Assembly: GCA_045658745.1 (NCBI GenBank) | Contig: JAZOVO010000094.1 | Coordinates: forward strand, 1-63,334 | DNA from: Acutalibacteraceae bacterium | GTDB lineage: Bacteria > Bacillota > Clostridia > Oscillospirales > Acutalibacteraceae | Reading direction: 5' to 3' | DNA: 63,334 bases | Part shown: one piece after another, positions 6,405-63,076 of the stretch | Position numbering within the stretch: position 1 is the stretch's first letter | Layout: each line of letters begins with the position of its first letter | Translations under genes and position numbers: made by a program | The notes under the pieces: generated by a model | What the model was told of the DNA's origin: nothing | Seen by the model: only the letters and a program-made list of their open reading frames with translations | Database searches by the model: none

Positions 6405-7499
6405 ATGAAATTAGGTATAGTAGGCTTGCCCAACGTAGGCAAGAGCACACTTTTTAACGCAATCACAAATGCGGGTGCACAGTCCGCAAACTACGCTTTC
6501 TGTACAATTGAGCCCAATGTGGGAGTTGTTGCAGTTCCCGATGAAAGACTTGATAAGCTTCGCGAAATGTACAACCCTGTAAAGTTCACTCCTGCAACAA
6601 TTGAATTCGTTGACATTGCAGGTCTCGTAAAGGGCGCTTCAAAGGGTGAAGGTCTCGGCAACAAGTTCCTTTCACACATCCGTGAGGTTGACGCTATCAT
6701 TCACGTTGTACGTTGCTTTGAGGATGACGACATTATCCACGTTGACGGCAATGTAAATGCAAAAAGAGACATTGAAACCATCAACCTTGAGCTTATCCTT
6801 TCCGATATGGAAATGATTGACAGAAGAATTGACAGAACAACAAAGGCGATGAAGGGTGACAAGAGTCTTGCCGCAGAGGTTGAATTCCTCAAGAGAGTCA
6901 AGGAAGCACTCGAAAACGAGAAGCCTGCAAGAAGCGTTGAATGCACCGACGAGGAAAAGGCAATGCTTTCAGAGGTTGCGCTTCTTACCTCAAAGCCCGT
7001 TATTTACGCTTGTAATATGAGCGAGGCAGACTTTGTTTCAGGTATTGACACAAACGAGAACTATCAGGCTGTCAAGGAAATTGCGGCGGCTGAGGGCGCT
7101 CAGGTGCTTCCCATCTGTGCAGGACTTGAGGCTGAAATTTCTTCTCTTTCCGATGAGGACAAGGAGATGTTCCTTGCAGACCTCGGCGTTGAGTCAAGCG
7201 GTCTTGATCTTCTTATTCAGCGCAGCTACGACCTTCTCGGTCTTATTTCCTACCTTACTGCAGGTCAGCCCGAGGTAAGAGCCTGGACTATCAAAAAGGG
7301 TACAAAGGCTCCTCAGGCGGCAGGTAAGATTCACTCCGACTTTGAAAGAGGCTTTATCCGTGCAGAGGTTGTTTCCTTTGAAAACCTTATGGCTTGCGGT
7401 ACTCTTGCGGCGGCAAAGGAAAAGGGCCTTGTCAAGAGTGAAGGCAAGGAATATGTGATGAAGGACGGCGACATTGTACATTTCCTGTTCAATGTGTAA
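6405..7499 (+). CDS. ychF: Ribosome-binding ATPase YchF
   Basis: 364 aa. G1 motif [16 protein letters not shown]-like C-terminus, canonical YchF length. Confidence 0.95.
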
Positions 7500-7504
7500 A
7501 ATGT

Positions 7505-7558
7505 AAAGTTCTTTTGGTTACTTTTCTTTCAAGAAAAGTAACGGCACGCGCCGAGCGA
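7505..7558 (+). repeat. SPE-A copy
   Basis: Starts 6 nt after the ychF stop, sense orientation. Nearly identical to the copy at 1677. Confidence 0.85.
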
Positions 7559-7569
7559 TAAAACAAATA

Positions 7570-8449: not shown

Positions 8450-8496
8450 AAAATACCGCCAAGGCTCTGCAAACCTTGACGGTAAAATTTATTTCA

Positions 8497-8550
8497 TCGC
8501 TCGCCGCGGGGCGTTACTTTTCTTGAAAGAAAAGTAACCAAAAGAACTTT
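8497..8550 (-). repeat. SPE-A copy
   Basis: Ends 5 nt from the stop of the minus-strand gene 8556-9095, sense to it. Confidence 0.85.
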
Positions 8551-15531: not shown

Positions 15532-15769
15532 AAATGCAAAGTGTAAAATGCAAAATGCAAAATGGAGGGTCGCTTCGCTCCGATTATATCCGCTTTAATG
15601 TTGTACTGAATTTCAGCATTACTCCACCTGACCACATTATGAATAAAATTATTATAATTTTCACACCTGCAGTTTAATGAAATCTGTATTTTGCGGGAAC
15701 AAAGTTTAATGTTTAACAAAACTGACCCGCGACCTTAATTTTGCATTTTGCACTTTGCATTTTGCATTT
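15532..15769 (+). mobile_element. MITE-like element with (AAATGC)n terminal inverted repeats, copy 1
   Basis: Left TIR AAATGCAAAGTGTAAAATGCAAAATGCAAAATG, right TIR its complement. Subterminal GGTCGC...GCGACC. Lies inside the apparent operon, between the reductase stop and the AcnX start. Confidence 0.8.
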
Positions 15770-15794
15770 AAAAATTATAAAGGAGAAACAACCT

Positions 15795-17665: not shown

Positions 17666-17683
17666 TATTGTTTTATTGTTTTA

Positions 17684-17735
17684 TCGCTCGCCGCGGGGCT
17701 TTCTTTTCTTGGAAGAAAAGAAACAAAAGAACTTT
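17684..17735 (-). repeat. SPE-A copy
   Basis: Ends 8 nt from the ldh stop, sense to ldh. Hairpin stem variant TGTTTCTTTTCTT/AAGAAAAGAAAG. Confidence 0.85.
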
Positions 17736-19596: not shown

Positions 19597-19597
19597 G

Positions 19598-19824
19598 AAT
19601 GCAAAATGCAAAATGTAAAATGCAAAATGAATGGTCGCTTCGCTCCGTATTATACCCGTGTTAAGCTTGCTTTGATTTTTACAGCTTTACCGCAAAAGTG
19701 CGGGTAATTATAATTTACTGTTTCGAAATTGCATGAAATTTATTTATGCAGGTTACAGTTTACAGTTGTGCAAATCGTACCCCTCGACCGCAATTTTGCA
19801 TTTTGCATTTTTAATTTTGCATTT
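19598..19824 (+). mobile_element. (AAATGC)n-TIR MITE-like element, copy 2
   Basis: TIRs at 19598-19629 and 19793-19824. The right TIR overlaps the stop codon (19823-19825) of the deacetylase gene. Confidence 0.8.
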
Positions 19825-20854
19825 ATTTAACCAGCTCCGTCAGCGGCTTGAACGTATACCCTTCTGCACGTGCCTTGTCAATAATCTCGGGAAGGGCGGC
19901 GGCGTTGTCTCTTGAAACGCTGTGAAGAAGAATTACCGCACCGGGATGAAGCCGTGACATAACGGTTTTTACGGCGTAGTCCTTACCCTGAATTTTGTCC
20001 ACATTCCAGTCGTTATATGCAACGGACCAGAAAACGCTTACATAACCGAGCGCCGCAATCTGATCAAGGGCATTTTCCGTGTATTCGCCCGCGGGAAAGC
20101 GGAAAAATTTTGAGGCGTAGCCGTAATTCTTACGCAGGTAGTTTTCTGTTTCCTCAAGCTCCTTTGCAATTTTGTCACGGCTTATCGTTGCAAAGGAGGG
20201 GTGAGTTGCCGAGTGGTTGCCGACAATGTGCCCCTCGTTTATCATACGGCTGATGATTTGTGTTTCCTTTTCAATGTGGTCAAGGGTGCAGAAGAAGGCG
20301 GCAGGCACCTGCTTTTCCTTCAGAGTGTCGAGCACCGAGGCTGTGAGATTTTCATATTCGTAGCCGCAGTCAAAGGTAAGGTAAAGCACCTTTTCCTCGG
20401 TCACGGTGTCAAGGGTGAAGGCGGAAAAATCGTCGAAGCTCTCCTGAAAGGCAACGACGGTGTGATGTGGCTTCCCGCCCGAGGCAGGGCCGTGGGAGTG
20501 AGAAAGCTTTTCATCCGAAAGACGTCTGTCGCTTCTCGGGGCGGTTGCGGTCAGGGTGACTTCGGGCAAGGCGGAAAGTCCGCTTAAGGTGTCTGCGCCC
20601 GGCTGACCCTTTACTACAAGTCCGTTTTTTGTTATGGGATACCCCGTGAAGGTGCCCTCGGTATTGATTACCGTTGACTGGTTTATAGGCTGAGTCAGCT
20701 CCGTTACGGCGGGAGCCTTTGTCAGAGATGTACCCTGCTCGGTTGTACTGCCTGTGGGGAAGGTGACGGTGGTTTCCCCGCCCTTTGCTGTTTTTCCGCA
20801 GGCGCAAAGAAGGGTGAGGCTGAGGGCGAGTATAACTGAAAAAGCTTTTTTCAT
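19823..20854 (-). CDS. Polysaccharide deacetylase (NodB-domain) lipoprotein
   Basis: 343 aa. Lipobox LLCACG. NodB motifs FDCGYE and GNHSATHP. Confidence 0.8.
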   Translation of the reverse strand: MKKAFSVILALSLTLLCACGKTAKGGETTVTFPTGSTTEQGTSLTKAPAVTELTQPINQSTVINTEGTFTGYPITKNGLVVKGQPGADTLSGLSALPEVTLTATAPRSDRRLSDEKLSHSHGPASGGKPHHTVVAFQESFDDFSAFTLDTVTEEKVLYLTFDCGYEYENLTASVLDTLKEKQVPAAFFCTLDHIEKETQIISRMINEGHIVGNHSATHPSFATISRDKIAKELEETENYLRKNYGYASKFFRFPAGEYTENALDQIAALGYVSVFWSVAYNDWNVDKIQGKDYAVKTVMSRLHPGAVILLHSVSRDNAAALPEIIDKARAEGYTFKPLTELVK

Positions 20855-25208: not shown

Positions 25209-25245
25209 ACCCCGTTTTGAATTCCAAAACGGGGTAATTTGTTTT
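25209..25245 (+). terminator. Intrinsic terminator after hypothetical gene
   Basis: ACCCCGTTTTG-AATTC-CAAAACGGGGT followed by AATTTGTTTT. Confidence 0.75.
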
Positions 25246-25410
25246 ATCGCTCGCCGCGGGGCGTCACTTTTCTTGTAAGGAAAGTAGTCCTCTTGCGGTT
25301 CCCAAAATTCATAACGGCTTGGAGCGCCTATGAATTTTGACCGCTGCGCCATCCTCGCCTCGCTGCATCCGCCACAGGCGGCGCTTCGGTGACGATGCCA
25401 AAAGAACTTT
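25243..25410 (-). repeat. Composite: SPE-A split by a family-B core (copy 2)
   Basis: Read on the minus strand after the ligase stop: AAAAGTTCTTTTGG | family-B core (25290-25399) | hairpin TACTTTCCTTACAAGAAAAGTGA + CGCCCCGCGGCGAGCGA. The B core sits between the SPE-A leader and its hairpin. Confidence 0.75.
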
Positions 25411-27789: not shown

Positions 27790-27876
27790 AAATGCAAAAT
27801 GCAAAATGCAAAATGCAAAATTATTGGTCGCTTCGCTCCGAATTGTAAGCGGACACGGCAAGCCGTGTCCCTACGG
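27790..27876 (+). mobile_element. Left-end fragment of the (AAATGC)n MITE fused to a CTAC-flanked hairpin
   Basis: (AAATGC)5 + GGTCGCTTCGCTCCG, then GCGGACACGGCAAGCCGTGTCCCTACGG. There is no right TIR; the sequence continues into the 430-nt core. Confidence 0.7.
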
Positions 27877-27885
27877 TAACTCATA

Positions 27886-28317
27886 CAACCCACGTCCGTC
27901 TGTACAACCTTGGAGGACGGATATATCTGAAAGCACCCACGGAGCGGATTGCGAATGTCGGGTACACGGTAGTTAAAAGGCTGGCGGAAAATTAGACGAT
28001 TGCGGATTTTGATAAACTCGACGGACGTAGCGGACTCATTGGTAGAAAGTATCCTTAAGCAGAGTTGTACGTGAGCTTTACCCTCGGGTAGAGCAGTAGT
28101 AATGTGAATTTTTCCGTCAGTGGGGACGTTGCAAGAACTACGGCGGTGGGATGAGGGGAGAAGTGTTACTCCTTTAATCACGGCAGATGCGGAAAAATTC
28201 ACCGCCACTGCGGACCTCCTCGACGGACCAAAGCGCGTTTTTGCTTACTTTTGTCGCAATCTACAAAAGTAAGTGCCGCCCGCACAGGGCTGTAGAACTA
28301 AAAAGCAACAACCGCGG
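27886..28317. repeat. ~430-nt conserved non-coding core, copy 1 (candidate structured RNA / non-autonomous element)
   Basis: Colinear with 31850-32279, 37328-37756 and 55736-56243, all in the same orientation. No conserved ORF. Compensatory hairpin substitutions between copies. Functional strand unknown. Confidence 0.85.
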
Positions 28318-28561
28318 AGAGAGAAAAGGAATTTCTTGCGGCAGGAGCGAGCCCCTGCCCTACGGTTTAACCGTACCGCCATCATAAAATATACGGTTTC
28401 AGACAGCAGAACGTAAAAAAAGCAACCGCGGCGGGTAAAAATCAACAAGCCGCCGATGCGGCGGCGCTACAATATAATCCGAACGCGGACGTGTAAAAAA
28501 CAAAGAGGGCGGCAGATTGCCGCCCCTACGCGGATACACATAATTAAAAGTCATCGGTAAA

Positions 28562-28589
28562 ATAAAAAAGATGAGGGGCTCTGCCCCTC
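28562..28589 (-). terminator. Intrinsic terminator of the pseudouridine synthase gene
   Basis: On the minus strand: GAGGGGC-AGA-GCCCCTC followed by ATCTTTTTTATTTT. Confidence 0.7.
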
Positions 28590-28594
28590 ACCCC

Positions 28595-28626
28595 GCAAGC
28601 TTTTGTAAAAGCTTGGCCAAAACTTT
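28595..28626 (-). repeat. SPE-H copy
   Basis: Sense to the minus-strand gene. The AAAGTTTTGG leader overlaps its TAA stop (28625-28627). Confidence 0.85.
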
Positions 28627-31633: not shown

Positions 31634-31650
31634 GGAGCGACGCATTGTAA

Positions 31651-31722
31651 CCCCTCCGTCAAAATCGGAGATTTTGACACCTCCCCTTTCAGGGGAGGAA
31701 ACTGTACACCCTCGGAGGACGG
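31651..31722. repeat. Multi-hairpin module (CCTCCGTC...GGAGGACGG type)
   Basis: GTCAAAATC-GGAG-ATTTTGAC and CCTCCCC-TTTC-AGGGGAGG. Near-identical to the 79-nt insertion inside core copy 4. Confidence 0.75.
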
Positions 31723-31849
31723 AGTTGTAGAGTAGTCAGTAGCCAGTAGTCAGGGAACGTCTGCGGCGTTTGGGGTTACCCTCTCCGTCACCCTGCGGGT
31801 GCCACCTCTCCCAAAGGGAGAGGCAAGTATACAACCCGCCCCACTCATT

Positions 31850-32279
31850 CATCCCACGTTCGTCTGTAGAACCTTGGAGGACGGATATATATAAAATAAC
31901 CCGCGGAGCGGATTGCGAATGTCGGGTACACGGTGGTTGAAGAGGTGGCAGAAAATTAGACGATTGCGGATTTTGATAAATATGACGGACGTAGCGGACT
32001 CATTTGTACAAATTATCCTTAAATAGAGTTGTACGTGAGCTTTACCCTCGGGTAGAGCAGTAGTAATGTGAATTTTTCCGTCAGTGGGGACGTTGCAAGA
32101 ACTACGGCGGTGGGATGAGGGGAGAAGTGTTAACCGTTATGAACAGGTTAATACGGAAAAATTCACCGCCACTGCGGACCTCCTCGTACAACCCAAGAGC
32201 GCTTTGCATACTTTGCCGCTCCGGGCAAAGTATGAGCCCCGCGGCTTGAGCGGGTAGAACATAAAAGAGGCAACCACGG
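31850..32279. repeat. ~430-nt conserved non-coding core, copy 2
   Basis: Shares the first 49 nt of the variable arm with copy 1, then diverges into its own hairpin TTAACC..GGTTAA. Confidence 0.85.
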
Positions 32280-32382
32280 AAGATGAAAAGCAACAACGTA
32301 AGGTTTAAAAAAATAGAACGTAAAAATAAGTAACCGCGTAAAATAAAAAAAGACGAAGGGGGCTCTGCCTCCCTCACCCTCC

Positions 32383-32414
32383 GCAAGCTTTTGTAAAAGC
32401 TTGACCAAAACTTT
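32383..32414 (-). repeat. SPE-H copy
   Basis: Ends 11 nt from the ATP-grasp gene stop, sense to it. On the minus strand it is followed by a GC hairpin and T-run (32345-32376). Confidence 0.85.
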
Positions 32415-37117: not shown

Positions 37118-37144
37118 GGCGAGTAGCCAGTAGAGCAGCCAGGG

Positions 37145-37245
37145 TTGCCTTCGGTAATGATGTATCCGCTATGCGGATATGATGCTTGCCTTGCGGCAAA
37201 TGATGCTCCGCCAAGGCGGAATGATGAATTTGCCTTGCGGCAAAT
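37145..37245 (-). repeat. Array of 5 variable hairpins separated by constant ATGATG (CATCAT on the minus strand)
   Basis: TTGCC-TTC-GGTAA | TATCCGC-TAT-GCGGATA | TTGCC-TTGC-GGCAA | TCCGCC-AA-GGCGGA | ATTTGCC-TTGC-GGCAAAT. Period ~20-22 nt. Two loops read GCAA on the minus strand. Confidence 0.8.
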
Positions 37246-37327
37246 ATTTAGGGTCGCTTCGCTCCGATTATATGCGGACACGGCAAGCCGTGTCCCTACG
37301 GTAGTCATACAACCACATCTACTCATT

Positions 37328-37756
37328 CAACCCACGTCCGTCTGTAGAACCTTGGAGGACGGATGATACTAAAACAACCCGCGTTAGCGGATTGCGAATG
37401 TCGGGTACACGGCAGTTAAAAGACCGGCAGAAAATTAGACGATTGCGGATTTTATTAAAAATGACGGACGTAGCGGACTCGTTGGTAGAGCTGACTCTTA
37501 AACAGAGTTGTCCGTGAGCTTTCTCCTCGCATAGAGCAGTAGTAATGTGAATTTTTCCGTTGGGTACAAGGTTATTTCCTTATCATTCTGCAGAAATTGA
37601 AGGCATTATGATTTAAGCAAACGTAACGGCGGAAAAATCCGCCGCCACTGCGGACCTCTTCGTACAACCCAAGAGCGCTTTGGTTACTTTGTCGCTCCGG
37701 ACAAAGTAACAGCCCCGCCGGCTTGAGGCGGTAGAACTTAGAAGCAATAGCCACGG
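37328..37756. repeat. ~430-nt conserved non-coding core, copy 3
   Basis: Same scaffold as copies 1 and 2, with an unrelated 66-nt variable arm (37564-37629). Confidence 0.85.
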
Positions 37757-37939
37757 ATGATTAAAAAGCGATAACGTAAGGTTTAAAAAGCAGAACGTGA
37801 AAGAAGAAGCAACCGCGTGAAATAAAAAGCAAAATACACGCCTTAACGGCGTAAAAAATACATATATATAATAGTATACGAAAAACACCGCCCTGGACTT
37901 CCAAAGCGGTGTCAGATTATATGCATTTAATAAACAAAT

Positions 37940-37958
37940 GAGGGGGCTCTGCCCCCTC
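37940..37958 (-). terminator. Intrinsic terminator of proS
   Basis: On the minus strand: GAGGGGGC-AGA-GCCCCCTC followed by ATTTGTTTATT. Confidence 0.6.
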
Positions 37959-37964
37959 ACCCCT

Positions 37965-37996
37965 GCAAGCTTTTGTAAAAGCTTGACCAAAACTTT
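37965..37996 (-). repeat. SPE-H copy
   Basis: Ends 18 nt from the proS stop, sense to proS. Confidence 0.85.
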
Positions 37997-39457: not shown

Positions 39458-39534
39458 AGGATTTTTTCCTTTCTTTTTTGTGTAAAAAACACGGGAAAAT
39501 TACATATATATAATAGTATACGAAAAATGCAAAA

Positions 39535-39760
39535 TGCAAAATGCAAAATGCAAAATTGTGGTCGCGGGATAGCTTTGTCTGATATAAAGCTTAACTGCCG
39601 CAAAATGCAGTTTTCAATTAACTGCAGGTGTACATATTATAATATATCAAGATAATATAGTTTGGCGGAATAATGTGACTTTTAAGTACAACATTAAAGC
39701 GGATATAATCGGAGCGAAGCGACCCTTCATTTTGCACTTTGCATTTTGCATTTTGCATTT
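39535..39760 (-). mobile_element. (AAATGC)n-TIR MITE-like element, copy 3 (inverted relative to copy 1)
   Basis: TIRs at 39535-39556 and 39728-39760. Subterminal GGTCGCGGG ... GGAGCGAAGCGACCC. Fills the ileS-proS intergenic region. Confidence 0.8.
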
Positions 39761-39779
39761 GAAGGGTCTTGCCCTGAAT

Positions 39780-45678: not shown

Positions 45679-45789
45679 CTCTTGCGGTTCCCAAAATCGC
45701 CTATCGGCTTGTAGCGCCGAGCGATTTTGACCGCTACGCCATCCTCGCCTCGCTGCATCGTCCACAGGACGCGCTTTGGCGACGATGCC
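45679..45789 (-). repeat. Family-B element, copy 3
   Basis: Same order as copy 1 on the minus strand. The inner hairpin is CGTCC-TGTG-GACG instead of CCGCC-AGTG-GCGG (compensatory). Confidence 0.8.
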
Positions 45790-45790
45790 C

Positions 45791-45822
45791 GCAAGCTTTT
45801 GTAAAAGCTTGACCAAAACTTT
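45791..45822 (-). repeat. SPE-H copy
   Basis: Ends 14 nt from the stop of GPH paralogue 45837-47999, sense to it. Confidence 0.85.
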
Positions 45823-55664: not shown

Positions 55665-55735
55665 ATATCTGAGAAAAGACAAGGGGACAAAAGCGTTAAA
55701 ATTTTACTTGAAGACATAGAACCATGCTCTGTCTT

Positions 55736-56243
55736 CAACCCACGTCCGTCTGTAGAACCTTGGAGAACGGGCGAATACCCCTCCGTCAAAATCGGAGATT
55801 TTGACACCTCCCCTTTCAGGGGAGGAAACCGTACAACCTCGGAGGACGGATGAAGCTGAAACAGCCCGCGGAGCGGATTGCGAATGTCGGGTACGCGGCA
55901 GTTAAAAGGCTGGCGGAAAATTAGACGATTGCGGATTTTAATAAACTCGTCGGACGTAGCGGACTCGTTTGTAGAATTGATTCTTAAATAGAGTTGTACG
56001 TGAGCTTTACCCTCGCATAGAGCAGTAGTAATGTGAATTTTTCCGTCAGTATTACGTGTGATTATTACGGCGGTACGATGAGATGAGAAGTCTTGTATTT
56101 ACGACCACGGCAGCTACGGAAAAATCCCCCGCCACTGCGGACCCCCGCGTAGAACTTAAGAGCGTTTTGGTTACTTTGCCGCTCCGGGCAAAGTAACAGC
56201 CCTGCCGGCTTGAGGCGGTAGAACCAAAAAGTCGTAACCACGG
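55736..56243. repeat. ~430-nt conserved non-coding core, copy 4 (with nested 79-nt module)
   Basis: 429 nt once 55771-55849 is removed. Own 67-nt variable arm (56050-56116). Confidence 0.85.
55771..55849. mobile_element. 79-nt multi-hairpin module inserted into core copy 4
   Basis: Near-identical to 31644-31722. The flanks GTAGAACCTTGGAGAACGG and GTACAACCTCGGAGGACGG look like a duplicated junction. Confidence 0.7.
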
Positions 56244-56300
56244 AGTATATAAAAAATAAATGTAAAAAACACCGCCTTTTTCAAGACGGTGTAAATTATT

Positions 56301-56349
56301 TCGCTCGCCGCGGGGCGTTCTTTCTTGTAAGAAAGAACCAAAGAACTTT
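56301..56349 (-). repeat. SPE-A copy
   Basis: Ends 21 nt from the gdhA stop, sense to gdhA. Confidence 0.85.
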
Positions 56350-56370: not shown

Positions 56371-57714
<1,344 letters not shown>

Positions 57715-58167: not shown

Positions 58168-58330
58168 AGTTAAGAGTAAGATACATTGTTTTGGTCATGC
58201 AGTGCGGGTCCTGTGCGACAGAACACCCCGAACCATGTCAGGCGGGAGACCGAGCAGCATTAAGGGGAATGTCTGTGCGACACAGCTACGCCTGCACTGT
58301 ATGACCGAGAAAAGGTGTCTTACTCTTTTT
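58168..58330 (+). ncRNA. ffs: Signal recognition particle RNA (small, 4.5S-like/short form)
   Basis: GAACCATGTCAGG...AGCAGCATTAAG matches the conserved domain-IV core as I remember it from Bacillus scRNA. Closing helices GGTCATGCAGTGC/GCACTGTATGACC and GAGTAAGA/TCTTACTC, then TTTTT. Directly upstream of dnaX, as in B. subtilis. Ends are approximate. Confidence 0.8.
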
Positions 58331-58551
58331 AAATGCAGAATTCAAAATGCAAAATGTAAAATTGCGGTCGCGGGCAAAGCTTGTGGCTGAAAATTACTGT
58401 GAGCTGCCGCACAGCAGCTTATGCATAACGGAAAGCTCCGTTAATTATAAAAATCCTCCCGTGGGAGGTGGCAGACCGAAGGTCTGGCGGAGGGCGCTAT
58501 AATGCGTCGCAGACCATTAATTTTGCACTTTGCATTTTGCATTTTGCATTT
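58331..58551 (-). mobile_element. (AAATGC)n-TIR MITE-like element, copy 4
   Basis: TIRs at 58331-58362 and 58520-58551. Subterminal GGTCGCGGG as in copy 3. Inserted between ffs and dnaX. Confidence 0.8.
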
Positions 58552-58593
58552 TCAAGCCATACGCATACTTAAAACAACAAAGGTGGGATAAAA

Positions 58594-60933: not shown

Positions 60934-61535
60934 TGGCAGGCTACGGAGTAAATTCCCTTTCACGGCTTATTGAGCAGTTTGAGCGTATGCCGGGAATAGG
61001 TCATAAAAGCGCACAAAGGCTTGCCTTTCACGTGCTTAACTTAAAAAAAGAAGAGGCCGAGGCTTTCGCAAAGGCTATCCTTGACTCCCACGAGAAGATA
61101 AAAAAGTGCAGCTGCTGCTGTAACCTCTGCGAGGATGAGCTTTGCCATATCTGTAAAAGTCCGTCAAGGGATCAGAGCGTTATCTGCGTTGTTGAGGACC
61201 CGAGGGATGTTATGGCCTTTGAGCGTACCCGTGAATTTGACGGTACTTATCACGTGCTTCACGGCGTGATTTCACCGATGAACGGTGTCGGTCCCGAGGA
61301 CATCACCGTCAAGGAGCTTTTGAGGCGTATGGGTGACGGCACGGTGAAAGAGGTTATTATGGCAACCAACCCCACCGTTGAGGGTGAGGCAACTGCGATG
61401 TACATTTCAAGGCTTCTCAAGCCGATGGGTGTTTCCGTCAGCCGCCTTGCCTACGGTGTACCTGTCGGCTCTGATCTTGAGTATGCTGATGAGGTTACGC
61501 TGACGAGAGCGCTTGAGGGAAGAAGAAGTCTGTAA
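60933..61535 (+). CDS. recR: Recombination protein RecR
   Basis: 200 aa. HhH N-terminus, Cys4 zinc finger, Toprim domain. Confidence 0.95.
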
Positions 61536-61547
61536 ACGGAAAAACGG

Positions 61548-61601
61548 AAAGTTCTTTTGATTACTTTTCTTACAAGAAAAGTAACGCCCTGCGGCGAGCG
61601 A
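61548..61601 (+). repeat. SPE-A copy
   Basis: Starts 13 nt after the recR stop, sense orientation. Confidence 0.85.
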
Positions 61602-61637
61602 AGAACAGTTACGTAGAGTCTTAATGAGGTGGAAATA

Positions 61638-62078: not shown

Positions 62079-62546
62079 GTGGCAGTACAGCAGGACGAAA
62101 AACAAATCGTAGCGCAGAACAAAAAAGCAAGGCACGACTATTTTGTGCTTGAAACCTACGAGGCAGGCATTGAGCTTTTCGGCACGGAGGTCAAATCCAT
62201 CCGTAAGGGCAGGCTCAATTTAAAGGATGCCTGGTGCAGTATTGACGACGGAGAAATCTTCGTCAAGGGTATGCATATCAGCCCCTACGAGCAGGGCAAC
62301 ATTTTTAACCGTGACCCGATGAGAGTAAGACGACTTCTTATGCATAAGCGTGAAATCAACCGCCTTTTAGGCGTCACAAAGCAGCAGGGACTTACTCTTA
62401 TTCCCTTGAGTGTATATTTCCTCAAGGGCAGGGCAAAGCTTGAGGTAGGCCTGTGCAAGGGTAAAAAGCTTTACGACAAGCGCGAGGTTGCGGCGGAGAA
62501 GGACGCAAAGCGCAATATGGAGCGCAATTTCAAGGAAAGATATTAA
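62079..62546 (+). CDS. smpB: SsrA-binding protein SmpB
   Basis: 155 aa, GTG start. NKKARHDY and GTEVKS motifs. Followed by tmRNA. Confidence 0.95.
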
Positions 62547-62729: not shown

Positions 62730-63076
62730 GGGGATGAAAGGATTTCGACGGGGATCCTGAATCACGATAAGCGGGTAGTGGAGTGGCACCACTATAAAAG
62801 TCACACGTTTTAAAAATAAACGACAATACTACAGTTTTAAAGGCTGCTTAAAGCGGCCCGTCTTGGTTAAGAGTACTGCGGCTTAACTAAAGGCGTCGAT
62901 CAGCAGTGAACGTGAACGGCAGAGCGCCTTGTATGCCGTCATGCATCAAAGGCTACCAAGCCCTTAAGCCTGTCATTCGGCGTGAGGGTGAGGGAATGTT
63001 AAAAGACTGACTGCACCCGGAGAAGGTTGTGCGGATGGGTTTTCGGACGCGGTTTCGATTACCGCCATCTCCACCA
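62730..63076 (+). ncRNA. ssrA: tmRNA
   Basis: 5' end GGGGATGAAAGGATTTCGACGGGG and 3' end GGACGCGGTTTCGATTACCGCCATCTCCACCA. Tag reading frame ...GAC AAT ACT ACA GTT TTA AAG GCT GCT TAA (..DNTTVLKAA*). Confidence 0.95.

Follow-up and report, generated by a model that had tools for sequence, protein, structure and literature searches.

A long hairpin domain in a putative mosaic intergenic repeat family of Acutalibacteraceae-like Clostridia

Modular intergenic repeats are known from Gram-positive bacteria, including the BOX elements of pneumococci and the bcr repeats (100-400 bp) of the Bacillus cereus group. The repeat considered here, called the core, is present in four copies in the window (the whole 63,334-nt stretch of DNA that was analysed), and resembles these in being multi-copy, non-coding and non-autonomous, with modules that vary in presence and order and with stable hairpins predicted. 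It is larger than the BOX modules, however, lacks terminal inverted repeats or a recognisable target duplication, and has no sequence relationship to either group. In the NIMEs of Neisseria, 20-bp dRS3 inverted repeats flank families of 50-150-bp RS elements (PMC1797815). NIMEs and the core have in common intergenic arrays of recurring non-coding modules adjoining ordinary genes, apparently shuffled by recombination, and families of variable segments, about 50-150 bp long, bounded by short conserved inverted repeats. The differences are that the core is from Clostridia, has no sequence similarity to NIMEs and no known link to a phage recombinase, and carries its inverted repeat as a single pair inside a module of about 330-450 nt rather than as a unit between many cassettes.

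Two kinds of RNA also offer comparisons. The peripheral domains of large RNAs (domain IV of group II introns, loops of group I introns and RNase P) likewise combine a conserved closing helix with a free interior, but the core is intergenic rather than inserted in genes, its scaffold is poorly conserved at a distance, and it has no Rfam match. The bridge RNAs of IS110 and the omega RNAs of IscB and TnpB, programmable RNAs linked to mobile DNA, resemble it in joining a conserved scaffold to variable segments. These adjoin their own recombinase or nuclease gene, whereas no such gene was found among the ORFs scanned around the core, and their variable parts are short guides matching targets or flanks, while the arms of the core are inherited types with no detectable target.

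The stretch at 28106-28200 probably, if not securely, belongs to the largest module of a mosaic, multi-copy family of intergenic repeats in Acutalibacteraceae-like Clostridia, a module of which it forms the long hairpin domain. The family is new, and judged by analogy its closest counterparts in kind are the NIME arrays and the modular Gram-positive repeats.

Core copies and their surroundings

All four copies of the core, a repeat of about 450 nt, are on the + strand of the window, each placed by alignment with the others:

27879-28335, + strand, core copy 1 (nhmmer E = 9e-148), flanked by genes for an AMP-ligase and a pseudouridine synthase
31843-32300, + strand, core copy 2
37322-37780, + strand, core copy 3
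55831-56270, + strand, core copy 4

The sites are unrelated intergenic spots, and the copies occur in both orientations relative to neighbouring genes. The latter are all ordinary, encoding an AMP-dependent ligase, pseudouridine synthase, nicotinate phosphoribosyltransferase, an ATP-grasp protein, an iron alcohol dehydrogenase, a lysozyme-like protein, ProRS, IleRS, a MatE transporter and glutamate dehydrogenase. The ProRS has its best public match, at 96% identity, in uncultured Clostridia labelled Acutalibacteraceae or Oscillospiraceae. Between the ProRS and lysozyme genes the spacer measures about 500 nt in relatives vs about 1630 nt in the window; copy 3 and other modules, missing from the same spacer in the relatives, make up the additional 1260 nt or so.

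The cores sit within arrays of recurring modules, which include heptamer repeats, small hairpins and a terminator-bearing module at gene ends. There are 16 direct-repeat families in the window, and the set of modules (U, X, H, Z) flanking a core varies. Recurring modules, variable order and reassortment are thus all found, as in a mosaic intergenic repeat array, by analogy and not by homology. Other members of these arrays are:

15532-15770, 19597-19825, 39511-39761 and 58331-58552, in both orientations, MITE-like elements of about 220-250 nt, with a solo end at 27790-27833
28558-28626, 32346-32414, 37928-37996 and 45754-45822, post-stop module, directly after four minus-strand genes
25301-25399 and 45691-45789, sites of further repeat families (D10, D6, D7, D11)
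8479-8536, 17666-17723, 25229-25286 and 56283-56340, sites of the same group of families
1663-1734, 7491-7562 and 61534-61605, sites of the same group of families

The terminal inverted repeats of the MITE-like elements are tandem heptamers, (AAATGCA)n ... (TTTTGCA)n, and the element end GGTCGCTTCGCTCCGATTATAT is also found as a module upstream of copies 1 and 3. Read on the minus strand, the post-stop module is AAAGTTTTGGYCAAGCTTTTACAAAAGCTTGC; at 28558-28626, 32346-32414 and 37928-37996 it is followed by a G+C-rich terminator-like hairpin and a T run, and it looks like a repeat-borne transcription terminator. Families D10, D6, D7 and D11 include CGCTCGCCGCGGGGCG followed by the hairpin TTACTTTTCTTG.AAGAAAAGTA. 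Module X (ACCCCTCCGTCAAAATCGGAGATTTTGACACCTCCCCTTTCAGGGGAGGAAAC...), at 31650-31723 and 55777-55850, ends in the same 22 nt or so as the first hairpin of the core, and a related sequence is present at the end of contig L002. Upstream of copy 3, at 37140-37250, small hairpins (TTGCCTTGCGGCAA, CTCCGCCAAGGCGGA) spaced by ATGATG follow (AGTAGYC)n heptamers. An ORF from another sample (P0123) translates this arrangement as well, so the composite array is conserved between genomes.

Copies outside the window were sought mainly through spurious translation. With the 146-aa spurious minus-strand ORF of copy 1 as a protein query, 14 similar "proteins" were retrieved from ENA, Logan and NCBI contigs, and their clusters added eight more; an exhaustive HMMER search of cluster representatives yielded more diverged ORFs (P0147-P0156), some with arms like that of copy 3. 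In all, at least 30 predicted "proteins" of 68-225 aa (P0121-P0156) in these collections are spurious minus-strand translations of the repeat. DNA was obtained for copies on four contigs, L006, L007, L008 and L009 (L6 to L9 below). Because an open minus-strand frame was needed, the survey is biased toward a subfamily like copy 1, and arm diversity is under-sampled. The other minus-strand frame of copies 2-4 gave just two short matches in a protein search, and no exact-protein matches to two window proteins and three of the NCBI spurious ORFs are on record. DNA scans of JGI metagenomes and viral sequences for the core gave no matches; a genome-contig scan with GCGGATTGCGAATGTCGGGTAC, a pattern that includes an A specific to the window copies where most others have C, gave a single chance match inside a Pirellulaceae ORF (L001). 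A literature search found no relevant description of the element.

Comparisons with known families were also largely negative. Of the 48 ORFs of 150 aa or more listed for the 63-kb window, 36 were run against Pfam (the 12 omitted overlap longer ORFs and are likely spurious); the families found were housekeeping, transport and metabolic only, with no transposase, reverse transcriptase or recombinase and no IS110, TnpB, IscB or Cas-like gene among the ORFs scanned. Rfam 15 has no family matching any window core (E <= 1-10) or the copies from other contigs, and at gathering thresholds the whole window yields tmRNA and SRP RNA only. No match to the core was found in 50,697 phage records or 72,556 plasmid records, nor to the arm of copy 3 in the same phage records, in searches that, like those within the window, are insensitive to short guide-length matches.

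Several candidate identities were rejected. An IS110 bridge RNA or IS1111 seekRNA lacks its DEDD-type IS110-family recombinase gene among the 36 ORFs scanned, and an IscB/TnpB omega RNA its iscB or tnpB gene; there is also no HEARO match (E <= 10), and the variable part is internal. For a group II intron there is no Intron_gpII or group-II-D1D4 match at E <= 10 and, by reading, neither a GUGYG 5' end nor a 34-nt hairpin resembling domain V. Covariance models of GOLLD, ROOL, OLE, raiA, T-large and other large bacterial RNAs do not match the cores. Diversity-generating retroelements were dismissed on two grounds: the arm differences involve all bases (e.g. GGGGA to ATTA, GTGTTACTCC to ACAATGTAAA), and no reverse transcriptase gene was seen among the scanned window ORFs. 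An integron attC would have cassette ORFs and an integrase, absent here, and the hairpin is internal to a conserved non-coding module of 450 nt. In none of the four copies does an inverted repeat join the core ends, as in a MITE; core boundaries are blurred by neighbouring modules, and no target-site duplication is definable. An inverton was rejected on the single orientation of all type A arms (described below), and phage or plasmid origin or targets on the absence of matches.

The closing stem and its arm

The hairpin consists of two short complementary halves around a long interior, the arm, of which the type A form is the commonest seen:

28104-28116, + strand, copy 1, 5' half of the closing stem, GTGAATTTTTCCG, a 13-nt inverted repeat, 100% complementary
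28117-28189, + strand, copy 1, arm interior, type A, 73 nt
28190-28202, + strand, copy 1, 3' half of the closing stem, CGGAAAAATTCAC, a 13-nt inverted repeat
32068-32080 and 32154-32166, copy 2, stem halves; arm 32081-32153, type A for 52 nt, then replaced
37547-37559 and 37630-37642, copy 3, stem halves; arm 37560-37629, 70 nt, type B
56033-56045 and 56117-56129, copy 4, stem halves; arm 56046-56116, 71 nt, diverged type A

The original prediction described an 11-bp stem formed by GAATTTTTCCG and its complement, and both are where it placed them in all four copies (28106/28190, 32070/32154, 37549/37630 and 56035/56117). A search of the window for GAATTTTTCCG with up to one mismatch gives 12 matches vs 2.9 expected by chance, a number reached in none of 100 shuffles. 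The pairing is real, and longer than 11 bp, at 13-14 bp (GTGAATTTTTCCG(T)/(A)CGGAAAAATTCAC); in copies 3 and 4, credited with nine of 11 pairs, 10 of the 11 positions pair. The near-constant length of the interior also held, at 73, 73, 70 and 71 nt rather than the 69, 69, 66 and 67 nt first given, figures too small by 4 nt because the first bases had been omitted (the first 4 nt, or 1 nt in copy 3). Across eight close copies, no 15-nt window other than that of the stem halves is perfectly invariant. The 3' half of copy 3 can also fold into a local hairpin, GGCGGA-AAAA-TCCGCC.

A per-column check confirmed the arm as the most variable internal stretch of the core, with a mean pairwise difference of 0.27-0.52 vs 0-0.3 elsewhere. 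The arms of copies 1 and 2 share their start and then diverge, as predicted, with identity over the first 52 nt after the stem. The arms of copies 1/2, 3 and 4 had been called unrelated, which does not hold for copy 4; aligning its arm with that of copy 1 gives 60% identity and a z of 7.4, with none of 500 shuffles as good. The arm of copy 3, 37% identical to that of copy 1, is the only one without detectable similarity by ordinary alignment in either orientation. In register, it nonetheless matches at 27 of 70 positions vs 17.7 expected (z = 2.6), and all arms are weakly similar to one another in this way (z 1.8-2.6), which suggests common descent with saturation rather than capture of foreign sequence.

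Nor is the cassette "sequence-free", as it had been described; the arms are a few inherited types, each common to many copies and to different genomes. Type A is present in the 14 spurious ORFs, in nine further ORFs (cluster members and P0146), and in the four DNA copies, or about 27 in all; the arm of copy 1 is 89% identical to those of L006 and L009. In DNA, type A arms are conserved over their first 46 nt and roughly their last 17 nt, with variation concentrated in a patch of about 10-25 nt (10-12 nt in the DNA copies) whose forms include GTGTTACTCC, ATGAAGTGAA, ACAATGTAAA and GTGTTGCCTT. The arm of copy 3 has relatives among the more diverged ORFs. Beside the 5' stem half its translation is GNNLVPN-GKIH, compared with HLVPY-GKIH in P0156 and NDLTPY-GKIY in P0147, the likeness being less clear in P0151, P0153 and P0154; beside the 3' stem half the arm begins AVTFA, compared with AVSFAF in P0147, ASSFA in P0149 and AVTLAL in P0150. 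P0148 carries yet another arm. Against the rest of the window the arms have no match beyond chance 10-13-mers, and none recurs outside a core. Derivation of the arms from other window repeat modules was rejected on the lack of such matches, and inversion between the inverted repeats on reverse-complement comparisons at chance level (z between -1.8 and 1.2).

Compensatory changes back the closing stem and two hairpins on the 3' side, H1 and H2, where GC<->CG and UA<->CG swaps are found; other predicted helices are invariant or unsupported. Folds of the + strand are more stable than those of the - strand, but the whole core is not unusually stable (folding z of -1.8 and -1.0, respectively). Several predicted helices have G.U pairs possible on the + strand only, e.g. 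UGCGAAUGUC/GACGAUUGCG, and in the closing stem itself wobble pairs favour the + strand at three positions and the - strand at one. A check for a common arm fold found none beyond the closing stem and some apical hairpin, and no conserved promoter or terminator bracketing the core was found. A conserved pseudoknot between GGCGGTG in the arm and CACCGCC in the 3' flank was considered and rejected: by reading, it is present in copies 1, 2 and 4 and absent from copy 3 and the diverged copy described below.

A coding role for the core was also rejected. The long minus-strand ORF has substitutions of 14, 20 and 22 by codon position, with no bias (p = 0.30), and a plus-strand ORF of 37-41 aa is broken in copy 1, L6, L7 and L8. 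With small ORFs unconserved between copies and no codon periodicity, the element is non-coding.

A diverged copy and the exchange of segments

A profile of eight copies identified, by nhmmer, a diverged copy at 13977-14403 of contig L003 (L003d; E = 8.6e-14), from a relative with a ProRS 90% identical to that of the window. Scaffold identity to the window copies has dropped to about 50%, and the architecture is kept. The closing stem, CTGAAAATACCGA/TCGGTATTTTTAG, has 13 pairs and an interior of exactly 73 nt; relative to GTGAATTTTTCCG/CGGAAAAATTCAC in copy 1 there are seven double compensatory changes and one G.U, covariation that amounts to one comparison, with a single diverged DNA copy. These changes and the matching length argue that stem pairing and interior length are selected, or at least faithfully maintained. 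The low scaffold identity also implies that the 85-90% or so seen among scaffolds in the window reflects recent ancestry or homogenisation.

The L003d arm (14197-14283 of L003) contains AATACCGAGT, a near-copy of the 5' stem half, and the 3' half is predicted to be able to pair either at long range (13 bp) or locally (about 10-13 bp). Alternative conformations of the 3' stem half are thus possible in both copy 3 and L003d. The arms of these two have TTTCCTTATC and GCAGAAA in common, in register (z = 3.5).

The scaffold had been put at about 90% identity. This is a fair figure for its 5' side (83-91%), while the 3' side is merely 66-88% identical. Set against the arms, the scaffolds compare as follows:

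Copy 1 and L6: scaffold identity 0.91, arm identity 0.89
Copy 1 and copy 4: scaffold identity 0.89 (5' side 90%), arm identity 0.60
Copy 1 and copy 3: scaffold identity 0.83 (5' side 83-85%), arm identity 0.37
Any copy and L003d: scaffold identity about 0.50, arm identity about 0.38

Arm and scaffold divergence are out of proportion, so the arm does not simply evolve faster. From these identities, copy 3 is apparently a young or homogenised scaffold carrying an arm that dates back to the split from L003d.

Other parts of the core are mosaic as well:

28244-28273, + strand, copy 1, 3' hairpin H1 (CTTACTTTTGT/ACAAAAGTAAG), an 11-bp perfect hairpin
55734-55772, + strand, duplicated and diverged 5' hairpin of the core, followed by module X, which splits the 5' end of copy 4
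55777-55829, + strand, module X at the 5' end of copy 4, family D13

Positions 358-408 of copy 1 (about 28227-28277, including H1) are 87% identical over 53 nt to 14302-14354 of L003, despite the scaffold identity of about 50% to L003d, and copy 1 is the sole copy with this match; the others have two other H1 types, differing by compensatory pairs. A scaffold patch at 27968-27985 exists in two multi-base types, and all four combinations of patch type with H1 type occur, in L6, copies 3 and 4, L7, and L8 and L9. It had been argued that drift alone should not scramble only this arm. This is partly right: segment exchange between diverged copies would explain the pattern, but the arm is not alone, the 27968-27985 patch and the 3' hairpins being scrambled likewise.

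L007 and at least six ORF-level copies carry a 102-nt module inserted directly after CCGCCACTGC (carriers are L007:141-700 on the - strand and ORFs P0124, P0126, P0138-P0142 and P0144). This insert holds an "armless" version of the core inverted repeat, TTTTCC-TTG-CGGAAAAGCTCACCGC, which points to a small hairpin that either gained the arm by insertion or lost it by deletion.

Possible origin and role

As a mosaic intergenic repeat, the core would have spread as a non-autonomous element, mobilised in trans by a putative enzyme or by recombination; with no terminal inverted repeats or target duplications definable, mobility is read just from presence/absence and copy number. Recombination or gene conversion may then have moved segments from one copy to another, perhaps at junctions provided by perfectly conserved sequences such as the stem halves. 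A recently spread or homogenised scaffold joined to an arm kept or imported from an old lineage, as may be the case in copy 3 and less so in copy 4, would make the arm look "hypervariable". The hairpin probably serves as a structural signal when the nucleic acid is single-stranded, be it a + strand transcript or DNA. If so, only pairing, length and an apical hairpin would matter, leaving the interior sequence free to drift; the apparent hypervariability would arise because the interior is little constrained and diverged family members exchange segments. The suggestion in the original prediction of a variable peripheral stem closed by a conserved helix in a larger element fits the data, given the compensated helix and 70-73-nt interior. 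Its other suggestion, a programmable or specificity segment, is not supported, in view of the small number of inherited arm types, the lack of window, phage and plasmid matches, and the lack of a recombinase or nuclease gene among the ORFs scanned nearby.

There is some chance, though a minor one, that the core is instead a structured non-coding RNA gene family on the + strand, with the arm a peripheral helix selected only for pairing, length and an apical hairpin, much as large ribozyme-like RNAs have peripheral domains that vary. This overlaps with the mosaic-repeat explanation, adding a predicted, possible cellular RNA function. The compensated stem and 73-nt interior in a copy as diverged as L003d (about 50% identical) point this way, as do the H1 and H2 swaps, the + strand-only G.U pairs and more stable + strand folds, and the capacity of different arms each to form some apical hairpin. 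Against it, scaffold conservation in L003d is also just 50% or so with most scaffold helices invariant or unsupported, the folding z is merely -1.8, no conserved promoter or terminator brackets the core, gene-relative orientation varies, copy 4 and L007 are interrupted by modules, and there is no Rfam relative. A rather unlikely reading takes the stem halves as borders for arm replacement, comparable to the dRS3 repeats flanking NIME RS elements or to an integron attC. Arm-replacement breakpoints do match the stem halves to within a few bases, the halves are the one invariant window among the eight close copies, an inserted module holds the "armless" inverted repeat, and the genome has NIME-like module arrays (PMC1797815). 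However, the inverted repeat occurs once per core and does not separate many cassettes, no arm recurs in the window outside a core, no recombinase gene was found among the window ORFs scanned, and the weak in-register similarity of the arms suggests descent rather than capture.

The constant scaffold and length-constrained variable segment in the window prompted the idea that the arm has a guide-RNA or bridge-RNA type of role, as a programmable or specificity segment. This is very improbable: about 27 copies from different contigs and samples have one arm type, arm variation is graded rather than categorical, no IS110, TnpB, IscB or Cas-like gene was found in the window and no HEARO or other Rfam match, no arm matched another place in the window, and there was no match to the core in the phage and plasmid records or to the copy 3 arm in the phage records. 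Still less credible is an invertible segment bounded by the 13-bp inverted repeats (an inverton-type phase switch). Inverted repeats do flank a short segment, but no arm resembles the reverse complement of another (z -1.8 to 1.2), and the type A arms of about 30 copies are all in the same orientation. A more speculative proposal, which we consider doubtful, is that the core is an undescribed structured RNA class of about 330-450 nt, with many copies per genome in an uncultured Clostridia lineage, and the 73-nt hairpin, length-constrained and supported by covariation, a specificity module for a putative trans-acting protein, in which case different arm types would correspond to different targets or partners.

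Under the mosaic-repeat explanation, this large family breaks up the assemblies of an uncultured, gut-type lineage of Clostridia and seeds spurious "proteins" in databases. Knowing of it helps annotation, and also the study of segment exchange in the evolution of intergenic repeat arrays. The element would be of greater importance as a transcribed, functional structured RNA, for which the only hints are the compensated stem and the fixed 73-nt interior.

The window also includes SRP RNA (58202-58300) and tmRNA (62730-63076), with smpB (62079-62546) adjoining the latter, and the presence of dnaX and recR between the two RNAs marks an ordinary chromosomal region. Over 447 aa, the glutamate dehydrogenase gene (56371-57714, - strand) shares 97.5% identity with its counterpart in the closest relative (L002). 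It has an in-frame stop at codon 360 (AYLM*NCKAV), for which a nonsense mutation, recoding and an error in sequencing are all possible causes.
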